From: an uncultured Halopseudomonas sp.
GTDB lineage: Bacteria; Pseudomonadota; Gammaproteobacteria; Pseudomonadales; Pseudomonadaceae
Assembly (NCBI GenBank): GCA_964474945.1
Contig: CAYYUQ010000004.1
Span: forward strand, 159-64,158
DNA: 64,000 bases
Direction of reading: 5' to 3'
Below the pieces are notes generated by a model, which worked only from the letters and a program-made list of their open reading frames with translations, ran no database searches and was not told the origin of the DNA. Position 1 is the stretch's first letter, and every line of letters begins with the position of its first letter. This document shows positions 36,714 to 40,567 of this stretch, one piece after another. The position numbers and the translations under genes are program-made.

Positions 36714-38429
36714 TTAGTACACGTCATTCTGAGTGTTGTGTACGTTGAACTTACCGGTCGGTGTGATCAGGCGCTTATCGCGGATCACTTTCTTCAGCTC
36801 CAGCGTCTTGTCATCAACGACGACAATAGCTGATTCCTCTTCCTGACCGCTCCATACAGAGAACCATACCTCGTTACCGGCCTTGTTGTACTCAGGTTGT
36901 ACGATCCGACGTGGGCCGTCAGGGATACCGGACCATTCAGCGATCGGCAGAACCTTGTAACCAGCGCCCAGGTTGTTGATGTCAAATACCGCAACCGACT
37001 GAGCAATTTCTGCGGTCGGGTTGAAGGTAGTGTCCACATACAGATTGGTGGAGTTCGGGTGCGTCTTGATGAACAGCGAACCACCGCCCTGACCTTTCAG
37101 CGTATCTACCACTTTCCAAGCGTTATCCGGGAAGTTGACCGGATCGGTACCAATCAGGGAGATGGTGTCATCACCCAAGTGACTGGTGCTCCATACCGGA
37201 CCGAACTCGGGGTGCGTGAAGTTGGCACCACGACCCGGGTGAGGAATCTTGCCCACGTCAACGATGGCGCCCAGAGCACGCTCTTTGGAGTCGATTACCA
37301 CAACCTTGTTCGAGTTGTTCGCCGCGGTCATGAAGTAACGGTGTGTGCTGTCCCAGCCACCATCGTGGAGGAACTGAGCGGTACCGATACTGGTTACAGT
37401 CAGGTTATCCAGGTCTTCGTAGTTGACCAGCAGGATCTGACCGGTTTCCTTGACGTTGACGATGAACTCGGGATGCTCGTGGGAAGCGATGATGGCTGCC
37501 ACGCGCGGCTCAGGGTGATATTCCTGCTCGCCTACGGTCATGCCACGGGTGGACATGATTTTCAGCGGTTCCAGGGTCTCACCGTCCATGATCACGTATT
37601 GCGGCGGCCAGTAGTCGCCGGCGATCACGTACTTGTCTTCGTAGCCTTCGTACTTGGAGGTTTCAACAGAGCGAGCTTCGATACCGACCTTGATCTCGGC
37701 AACCTTGGTTGGCTCTTTGGCCCACAGGTCGATCATGTCGATCTTGGCATCGCGACCAATAACCAGCAGATAACGACCGGAAGCAGACATCCGGGAGATG
37801 TGCACTGCGTAGCCGGTGTCGATGGTCTTGACGATCTCCTTGCTGTTGCCGTCGATCAGAGCGATCTTGCCGTCGTCACGCAGGGTCACCGAGAACAGGT
37901 TTGGCAGATCCAGCTTGTTCATCTGTTTGGTCGGACGATCTTCCGGCTTGACCAGCACAGTCCAGGAATCACGCATAGCAGACATACCCCACTCCGGAGG
38001 AGTCGGCGGCTCATGCTGGATGTAGTTGGCCATCAGGGTAATTTCTTCAGGGCTCAGCTCACCGGAGGTACCCCAGTTCGGCATGCCCGCCGGGGAGCCG
38101 TAGGAGATCAGCGCTTCCAGATAAGCCTGGCCACGTTGCTGGGTAATATCCGGAGTCAGAGGCTTGCCGGTGGCGCCTTTACGCAATACACCGTGGCAAC
38201 CGGCGCAACGCTGGAAATAGATTTCCTTGGCTTTATCAAAGTCAGCTTCGCTCAGATCCGGCGCGCCCGGGGTGCGTACGACACGGGCCAGCGAAGGATC
38301 AATGGCTGAGGCTTCACCCTGGTAGGCGGCGGCGGCTTGCTCAGGGTTGGAGGTCTGAGCAAAGGCTGCGGCAGTGACAGTCAGCGCCAGCACACTGAGG
38401 ACAGTTGTTAACGGTTTGGTCATTCTCAT
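36714..38429 (-). CDS. nirS: Cytochrome cd1 nitrite reductase
   Basis: Signal peptide, heme c [22 protein letters not shown], catalytic His in FLHDGG and PHPGRG, and TPTGKFNV. Confidence 0.98.
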
Positions 38430-38482
38430 GGCTATTTTCCTTTCCTTGAAACAAAAATGGGCTAATCGCATTACCGCAGTGA

Positions 38483-40498
38483 TCAGAAAGTCAGTCGTAT
38501 CTCCGTATCGATATGGCGTTGCAGGCCGGGTAGTTCGTCAAGGGGACGATAAGAGCGGTTGAGCAAGTTGCCCAGCAGTATTCTGGCGCTCAACCTATCC
38601 TGGTAATCGAATGTCATGGCAAGGTTCAAAGTGGCATAGCCGCTCTCCTTGTCCTCAACGCTCCGATCGACTCCCTTACGTGTGGAACCACTGGCGGTGC
38701 GCATAAAGAAGTCGAACTCACTATCCACCGAACCAAGCTGGGCGTAGCTACGCAGCCCCAAGGTGCCCATGGCACTGGGCATACCGCTGTTCCGGGTGGA
38801 ATAACCATTACCATAGTCAAACTCACGCTGAGTCAGACTGAAGGCAGCATGTGGCTGAAACAGCCAATCCGGGCGCCACTCAAGGGCGACTTCCAGACCT
38901 GTAGTTCTGGCCTCACTGATATTGGTGTACTGCCATTGCCGTTGACGGGCGCTGGCTGGCGGCCGGTAGCCGTCCGGTGTCTCGGTAATACGCTGACGAT
39001 CGATATAGTCTTTGGCGATGGTATGGAACAACACCGCATCGGCAGTCACCGCGGGCACCTCGTAGCGCCAACCCAGTTCCATGACTCGGGCACGCTCAGG
39101 CTTGAGGTCCGGATTGCCGTAATGGGTATTACTGCCAGCCACTGCCACCATGTGCAGCTGAGTCAGGGTCGGATAGGAATAGCCCTGGGCCAGATTGGCG
39201 CGCAACGCCCAGTGTGGAGCGGGGCTATATACCAGACCCAAAGAACCCAGCACGCGATCGTCGCTGCCGTCCGATGGACGCCCCTCAGTGGTGCGCTCCA
39301 GCTCCGAGTCAACACGGTAGTAACGGCCGCCCAGGTAAGCAGTCCAGTCTTCGGTAAACTGCCAATCCTGCTGAGCGAAGGCCGAGAAGGTCTGTTGATT
39401 GGCCTGTTGTCTGGACGCAGCGGGAAATTTCTTGCTGTCCAGCTCATCATCCACATACTCCAGGCCCACCAGGGTGGTCTGGTCAGCCAGCAGCTCCAGT
39501 TCGGCCTGCACTGCCATACCGCGGGTCTGTTGCTTATCGAGCGAATCGTTCTGGATCTGAACCCGACCCATGGGCGGCATGAGCATGACGGTATTCAGCG
39601 AGAACTCACGATCGACCTCACGATGGTAGGCGTTGGCTGACAGCTTCCGTATCAGCGGACTCAGGTCAGTCGCCTCATAGAAGAAGGCGTAGCGCTGTTG
39701 ATCACGCTTGGGAAAATCCATTTTCATCTCTACGCCAGGGTTCTGCTCCGGGTCAGACCAGGTTCCAGCGCTCAGATTGAAGCGCTCGGCCTTGATCGCC
39801 ATATAGTGGTTGTTTTTACGATAGCCCAGATGCAGCGCAGCGGACTCATTATCGTAGGCCGAGTTGTCCAGCTCACCATAACCACGGGTGCGGCGCTCGC
39901 CATGCTCGCTGCGCGACAGACTCAAGCGGTAATCAAAATCACCGCTGCTGCCGGCCAGCCCGGCGTTGCTGCGGTAGCCTTGGGTAGCGGAGTAATATCC
40001 ACCACCAACGTAGCTTTCCAGCGGCACATCGCTGCCACGCCGCGTGATGATGTTGACCACCCCACCGATGGCATTGGAGCCGTTGATCACGGACGACGGC
40101 CCACGTACGACCTCGACCCGCTCGATCATCGCCGGATCAATCAACAGCGGCGTGCCATGGTCGGTATGGTCGGTCATGGTCTGACCATCAATACGAATAG
40201 TTACCCGCCGCGAACTTTCACCGCGGATGGAAATGCGCTTCATGCCGGGGGTATCGGCATCTGTTAGCACCACACCGGGCACATCCCGGAACAGTTCGGC
40301 GACATCAGCCAGACTGCGGCGCCGCAGATCGTCTTCACCTATACGCGTGACGGAGCCCGGACTCATCAGACTGGCCACTGCGAAGCCAGTGCCGGTAATG
40401 ACCGTATCGGCCAACTGCAGAGCGGGGTCAACTTCTGACGCTTGCGCTACGGATAGAGCCAGCGCGGACAATCCAGCAACAAAAATATGAGTTTTCAT
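38483..40498 (-). CDS. TonB-dependent outer-membrane receptor, heme-receptor-like
   Basis: Signal peptide, TonB box (DTVITGT), plug motif [17 protein letters not shown]...[19 protein letters not shown] (FRAP/NPNL equivalents) and a C-terminal Phe. Confidence 0.92.
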
Positions 40499-40553
40499 GA
40501 ACATGGCTCCTGACAACGTAAACACATCATGGGGAAAGGTTCAGCAAGAAAGC

Positions 40554-40567
40554 TTGATCATTGTCAA
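40554..40567 (-). promoter_or_regulatory. Anr/Dnr (FNR-family) box for the TBDR-nirS transcript
   Basis: TTGAT-CATT-GTCAA. The class II -41.5 geometry places a CATGAT -10 at about 40526-40531 on the minus strand. Confidence 0.8.

Follow-up and report, generated by a model that had tools for sequence, protein, structure and literature searches.

Scavenging of cofactors by TonB-dependent receptors of the outer membrane is already known, as in the case of BtuB. A close parallel is PqqU (YncD), through which an intact redox cofactor, pyrroloquinoline quinone (PQQ), is imported in a TonB-dependent manner for a periplasmic apo-enzyme; most PqqU carriers have no PQQ synthesis genes, but some producers retain PqqU (23%, according to passages of PMC12124388). 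Ordinary heme is the substrate of the receptors PhuR, ShuA, ChuA and HasR. To our knowledge, heme d1, the cofactor of NirS, the cytochrome cd1 nitrite reductase, has been described only as something that denitrifiers each produce for their own use, and in the canonical nir cluster of Pseudomonas and Paracoccus nirS is accompanied by d1-specific synthesis and maturation genes. Here we analyze a 64,000-nucleotide stretch (the window) of contig CAYYUQ010000004.1 (positions 159 to 64,158; assembly GCA_964474945.1) from an uncultured Halopseudomonas sp., in which the gene of a heme-receptor-like TonB-dependent receptor directly precedes nirS. The reading that we favor, with a probability of roughly 0.7, is that this receptor would bring heme d1 or dihydro-heme d1 to the periplasm and so supply NirS with its cofactor in a PqqU-like manner, and import of heme d1 is what the locus suggests as new. 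It differs from PqqU in the proposed ligand and the sequence family, in the tie of the receptor to its client gene and in the several unrelated receptor families involved. The locus shares with the canonical nir cluster a NirS near the solved enzyme and a nirQ-nor operon facing it, but all the d1-specific genes are missing and the receptor stands between the regulatory box and nirS. A literature search, with most subscription journals outside its coverage, returned no report of heme d1 uptake or of a receptor-nirS pair. NirS clades differ in their carriage of nirBEFJNT, as stated in parts of Pold et al. (2024; PMC10999283), where the word TonB does not occur in the main text or six supplement files and the passages considered describe no uptake route.

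The receptor gene ends 53 bp before the nirS start on the same strand (Table 1), and the gap holds neither a stable hairpin (z +0.65 against shuffles) nor a terminator-like site in a terminator scan; open reading frames (ORFs) and scans agree here with the initial annotation, which had noted no evident terminator between the pair, and the two genes are probably co-transcribed. Read from the start with a ribosome-binding site, NirS is 571 aa long; the earliest ATG in its frame lies at 38471, and the receptor frame has a further in-frame ATG at 40504. The nitrite reductase scores 1014 bits against the solved enzyme 5guw, with CAGCH, AVHISR, FLHDGG and PHPGRG identical, and it carries the catalytic His/Arg residues and the CxGCH, LHD and PHPG motifs, which separate NirS from NirN and NirF according to the legend of Fig. 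S1 in Pold et al. (2024; PMC10999283). Its ratio of nonsynonymous to synonymous substitution rates (dN/dS) is 0.04-0.06 against four relatives.

Genes for heme d1 synthesis were sought in the whole assembly, which is 95.8% complete in 176 contigs. PF02239 matched once, on nirS itself, the NirDLGH domain PF17805 was not found, no NirJ match passed the cut-off, and tblastn with the d1 genes of relatives returned no nirC, nirF, nirD, nirL, nirG or nirH, the nirN query matching nirS only. The sole nirE-like match falls in a 464-aa frame with CysG layout, making up its C-terminal half, and this frame probably is CysG. The absence of the pathway, first noticed for the window, extends to the whole assembly, which has a single nirS. 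Further searches of this genome did not find nirK, and nosR and nosZ are present. Apart from this, tblastn gave no NarG match in the whole genome (G000), despite the presence of nirS, nor and nosZ; nap was outside the search.

For the comparison, a genome with nirS and without d1 synthesis genes was termed an orphan, and one with nirS and d1 genes a producer. Among 51 genomes of the genus, nirS is present in 14 and the receptor in 12, all 12 carriers being nirS genomes, and none of the 37 genomes without nirS has the receptor. Six are orphans (no nirF/N or NirDLGH), including the single-contig genome G009, and the receptor abuts nirS in every one of them. In the two producers of the genus that lack the receptor nirQ directly faces nirS, an arrangement found in G008 and G067 together with the full d1 cluster. 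A weakly matching receptor next to the G008 d1 cluster was rejected as a member of the receptor's family, being a standard heme receptor with its own tonB and ATP-binding cassette (ABC) genes. A separate observation is that in G024 (L090) the receptor and box still stand opposite nirQ with no nirS after them, a divergent nirS (43%) lying on another contig and a second heme-like receptor nearby within a dnr-receptor-nnrS run.

The comparison was then widened beyond the genus, and the 25 orphans found all carry a candidate receptor, in 23 of them on the nirS contig: 14 receptors abut nirS, five lie within 2.7 kb, four at 11-12 kb, and two are unlinked (fragmented assemblies). PF17805 was absent from all 20 of these 25 genomes that were tested for it, and the single-contig genomes G009 and G732 are likewise without the d1 pathway. 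Of the 17 genomes in family f25, eight carry nirS; each of these eight lacks a nirF/N-class match and encodes a distant member of the receptor's family, and in another two, fragmented genomes the receptor occurs without nirS. Drawing 401 genomes from the order added eight orphans, five of which have the receptor's own family, as against 1/34 producers; in the other three nirS is abutted by a different receptor, which in G430 belongs to TIGR01785 and in G043 and G431 is CirA-like. Within about 7 kb of nirS, a receptor of any kind was seen in 8/13 orphans versus 4/33 producers of this draw (Fisher p 0.0015, kin not being independent), and the same contrast by family gave 6/6 orphan versus 1/11 producer families (p 0.0006). 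Four further receptors of the 13 orphans are at 11-12 kb and one is on another contig, the four producers with a nearby receptor all belong to one family, and three producer loci had short flanks. As an independent test, 401 genomes were freshly drawn from the phylum and 16 producers were picked for long contigs from about 40: a receptor is beside nirS in 3/3 new orphans and 0/16 producers, two of the orphan receptors passing heme-receptor cut-offs and one being CirA-like. The slot receptor passes TIGR01785 or TIGR01786 in G430, G1047 and G1049 and is CirA-like in G043, G431 and G990. Three unrelated receptor families fill the nirS slot, two of them heme-receptor-like. Two nir-linked clades of the receptor's family, its L143 branch and the two unrelated families together make at least four recruitments by our count. 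The main argument, drawn from genome comparison, is that the repeated losses of the pathway have their counterpart in receptors repeatedly gained at nirS.

Four rows were set aside. G692 has a weak match without LHD and PHPG motifs and no receptor nearby, G1050 has NirDLGH, and neither G564 nor G022 has a nirS match, the latter retaining nirC and a truncated nirF only (L098:9904-11030), a remnant of a d1 cluster. Two other arrangements were seen around nirS. At L194, L197, L199 and L202 a NosR-like protein of about 500 aa precedes nirS, often divergent from the receptor (f25, G671, G748), and in producers of f15 (L213, L217, L227) receptors 3-4 kb from nirS match a copper-receptor model best, under its cut-off.

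Orphan NirS is under purifying selection. The 16/16 key residues checked are invariant in 17/17 sequences, and seven pairs of orphan nirS gave a dN/dS of 0.03-0.11 at dS 0.4-1.1, one further pair being saturated; nirK was absent from four of the five orphans tested. We regard it as very unlikely that the receptor recaptures a producer's own lost d1, with the non-producers being recent losers whose nirS is decaying or whose d1 genes are unassembled. Fragmentation of some orphan assemblies, a split nirS in G060 and G393, and the receptor kept by producers, at L143 right after nirN, agree with such a scenario, but single-contig genomes without the pathway, the eight f25 genomes and the substitution ratios above argue against it, and recapture by producers would still make d1 the ligand. 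Orphan and producer NirS are interleaved in the tree on very short branches (e.g., G004-G008 and G009-G027), and no column of the alignment cleanly splits them. Both observations, and the lack of a shared extra enzyme beside orphan nirS among the ORFs scanned, make it rather improbable that orphan NirS uses another cofactor or an unrecognised d1 route and that the receptor supplies a different precursor or a metal, a possibility to which the CysG-like siroheme synthase of this genome, a NirN/NirS-like paralog in f25 and the CirA-like receptor in the slot of three genomes lend some weight. The paralog (536 aa, 30% to NirN) has CxxCH and LHD and no PHPG; it was located at L100:9425-11041 (G060) and also in G384, G385 and G395, with norCB-like genes nearby in G384. 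Orphan NirS at L190:3411-5408 (G043), L192:8646-10889 (G430) and L249:7904-10096 (G1047) has an additional cytochrome c domain at its N-terminus.

The receptor itself has the Plug (PF07715) and TonB barrel (PF00593) domains of Pfam and, with a plug, a beta-barrel, a C-terminal Phe and TonB in the genome (TonB_C matches), it is a TonB-dependent transporter by the usual features; its structure model has a predicted local distance difference test score (pLDDT) of 87. The heme-receptor likeness proposed at the outset held in part. PhuR is the closest solved structure by sequence, and PhuR then ChuA by fold, many receptors scoring alike; the best NCBIfam matches, TIGR01786 and TIGR01785, are however both under their cut-offs, as they are for the hut-linked relatives, and there is no FRAP-His motif. 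Models of other receptors scored 71.8 bits against a cut-off of 1200 (PqqU, NF041535), 113 against 600 (BtuB, TIGR01779) and 62 against 472 (copper receptor of NosA/OprC type, TIGR01778). Plug residues Asp110-His111 are invariant, and His114 lines up with the plug His that serves ShuA as a heme ligand; this position is Tyr in 17/17 hut-linked and 12/21 nir-linked rows. Residues separating nir-linked from hut-linked receptors exist as candidates for specificity, are confounded by clade and are not claimed. Seven receptor pairs gave a dN/dS of 0.10-0.21, and named close homologs belong to Pseudomonas sp. MYb185, P. saliphila and Halopseudomonas pelagia, which points to Halopseudomonas as the probable host.

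The wider family was followed through 61 metagenome loci with its motif, of which 29 adjoin hutW, hutX, hemS or hmuTUV and eight have a nir, nor or nnrS gene next to them, the remaining 24 being short or uninformative; HutW identity held at one locus. Fur-like boxes were seen at several hut-linked or stand-alone members. A collection scan gave at least three close homologs among 79 loci listed, none of the three with nirS in the fetched DNA and two in heme-uptake loci. The neighbours at the 29 heme-uptake loci point to a tetrapyrrole ligand. In the family tree the nir-linked members form two clades with hut-linked ones between them, and a single nir-linked clade was rejected by the approximately unbiased test (p-AU 0.0006, LG+G4), the grouping having been named after quick trees were seen; L143, where the receptor is the gene after nirN in a full d1 operon, is a third branch.

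Unlike the loci of PhuR, ShuA, ChuA and HasR, and of its own relatives in hutWX and hemS-hmuTUV loci, the receptor has no inner-membrane heme ABC transporter or heme-degrading enzyme near it. No match to HemS, heme oxygenase, HutW/X or HmuT was found in the genome or beside the receptor, so that imported heme would have no evident route to iron release, and two HemN-like genes are present; neither heme-iron use nor a need for heme b thus explains the receptor. An import of ordinary heme b or heme iron under anoxia, serving the demand of NirS, Nor and cytochromes and linked to nirS by co-regulation only, is unlikely in our view. It would fit the ancestral role of the family in heme-iron uptake, the producers of the genus that keep the receptor, the Halomonadaceae carriers, which are only denitrifiers and mostly in hut loci, and the bfd-bfr pair adjoining nirS. 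Yet it leaves unexplained why receptors gather specifically at nirS in genomes without d1 genes and how NirS obtains its d1, and an FNR-type box replaces the Fur-like box of the hut-linked relatives.

This box, TTGATCATTGTCAA, is located in the interval from which the receptor and nirQ-nor diverge. It ranks first, at -65 to -74, in 17/18 upstream regions of the clade (some redundant), among them 4/4 without a divergent nirQ, which assigns it to the receptor-nirS unit. The best Fur-box match upstream of the receptor has eight mismatches in 19, and the promoter type given by the initial annotation, Anr/Dnr rather than Fur, was borne out, as was the hairpin between nirS and the convergent bfr. 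The spacing of the putative -10 element is that expected for a class II FNR promoter, with a predicted start near 40519. A sigma-70 scan found no promoter, and the same scan overlooked the nirS hairpin, so it is uninformative. Metatranscriptome contigs from four runs cover the receptor, nirS and norCB, and one terminates at 40518, beside the predicted start; they could be DNA, give no strand, start or co-transcription, and are not counted as support.

Table 1. Features of the receptor-nirS locus, with positions in the window.
Feature	Position	Strand	Remarks
TonB-dependent receptor, heme-receptor-like, candidate heme d1 importer	38483..40498	-	671 aa
nirS, cytochrome cd1 nitrite reductase, intact	36714..38429	-	PF02239 and cytochrome c domain
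FNR-family (Anr/Dnr-type) palindromic box TTGATCATTGTCAA	40554..40567		69 bp before receptor start
Putative -10 element CATGAT	40526..40531	-	Read from sequence
12-bp hairpin, likely two-way terminator of nirS and bfr	36672..36699		z -6.1 and -6.5 against shuffles
Divergent nirQ-norC-norB-norD-norE/F-like operon (nitric oxide reductase), sharing the intergenic box	40781..46399	+	nirQ by Pfam CbbQ/NirQ/NorQ
bfd-bfr, convergent to nirS, outside the module	35766..36654	+	Pfam

Regarding the neighbouring genes, nor names were assigned from translations, and the nirQ-nor order is conserved in relatives. The bfd-bfr pair comes after nirS in G011 and G036, but the loci fetched from G003, G008, G009, G015 and G021 did not show it. 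On the minus strand at 47015-49408, an SCP2 protein and two U32 proteins lie behind another FNR-type box near 49468; we take these genes to be ubiT-ubiV-ubiU, presumably of anaerobic ubiquinone synthesis, and in several relatives such genes come after the nor operon. Repeated sequence occurs at 46340-46950, between this operon and ubiT, visible as repeating peptides in several shadow ORFs.

For the import of heme d1 we propose the following course. At low oxygen or with nitric oxide (NO), an Anr/Dnr-type regulator would induce a joint transcript of the receptor and nirS and, divergently, nirQ-nor. After its export, NirS would acquire heme c in the periplasm. TonB would draw the tetrapyrrole, heme d1 or dihydro-heme d1, through the receptor barrel into this compartment, where it would be bound by semi-apo NirS, presumably with no help from NirF or NirN; since loading would be periplasmic, no inner-membrane transporter or heme-degrading enzyme would be needed. 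The cofactor would likely come from other denitrifiers releasing heme d1, and producers that keep the receptor may recapture or supplement their cofactor, as some PQQ producers keep PqqU. Passages of PMC13168839 place the last step of d1 synthesis and its insertion into NirS in the periplasm, and passages of PMC3694632 describe d1 binding as tight and NirS loaded with dihydro-d1 as active in vitro, and refer to work on reconstituting the apo-enzyme with d1.

Several observations weigh against this proposal. The receptor is kept by 6/8 producers of the genus, so there is no significant enrichment within the genus (p 0.47) and the receptor is not confined to non-producers. The linkage that the initial annotation asked about held: homologs are tied to nirS, and over the wider comparison a receptor linked to nirS is strongly enriched in genomes without d1 synthesis. 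In the Halomonadaceae (3 candidates scored per genome) the receptor is carried by 8/301 genomes, all producers, six times in hut/hmu loci and twice stand-alone with an FNR-like box. The receptor scores 221.5 versus a cut-off of 316.85 and 223.3 versus 323.75 (TIGR01785/TIGR01786), and it has YSYP..NPDL and no conserved loop His where ShuA has FRAP..H..NPNL, the barrel motif of heme receptors. One of the three recruited families is CirA-like and not heme-like, nirK occurs also in the orphan G009, nirS is apparently split over two frames in G060 and G393, and many of the compared genomes are drafts. In P. aeruginosa, maturation of NirS involves NirF and NirN, according to passages of PMC3694632, and both of these normal assistants are missing in this genome. 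As a qualification, the wider receptor family, judged by its gene neighbourhoods, mostly serves ordinary heme-iron uptake; the tetrapyrrole import suggested by the initial annotation is supported by the tests that could be computed, with this restriction and that of the receptor-keeping producers.

The order draw had 14 orphans among 48 PF02239-positive genomes (one non-NirS match set aside), and on balance it seems probable that heme d1 is a traded cofactor, with a considerable minority of the Gammaproteobacteria that carry nirS auxotrophic for d1 and importers recruited at least four times from three families. An importer, if true, would account for nirS genomes without maturation genes, and the proposal points to named genes that can be tested in genera open to culture, and possibly to a way of studying d1 insertion without NirF and NirN. 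An importer would also make the committed step of denitrification subject to a cofactor dependency. If auxotrophs denitrify only with their neighbours' cofactor, the presence of nirS alone would not mean that an organism can reduce nitrite, and the reading of nirS counts in surveys of nitrogen loss and nitrous oxide (N2O) would change.

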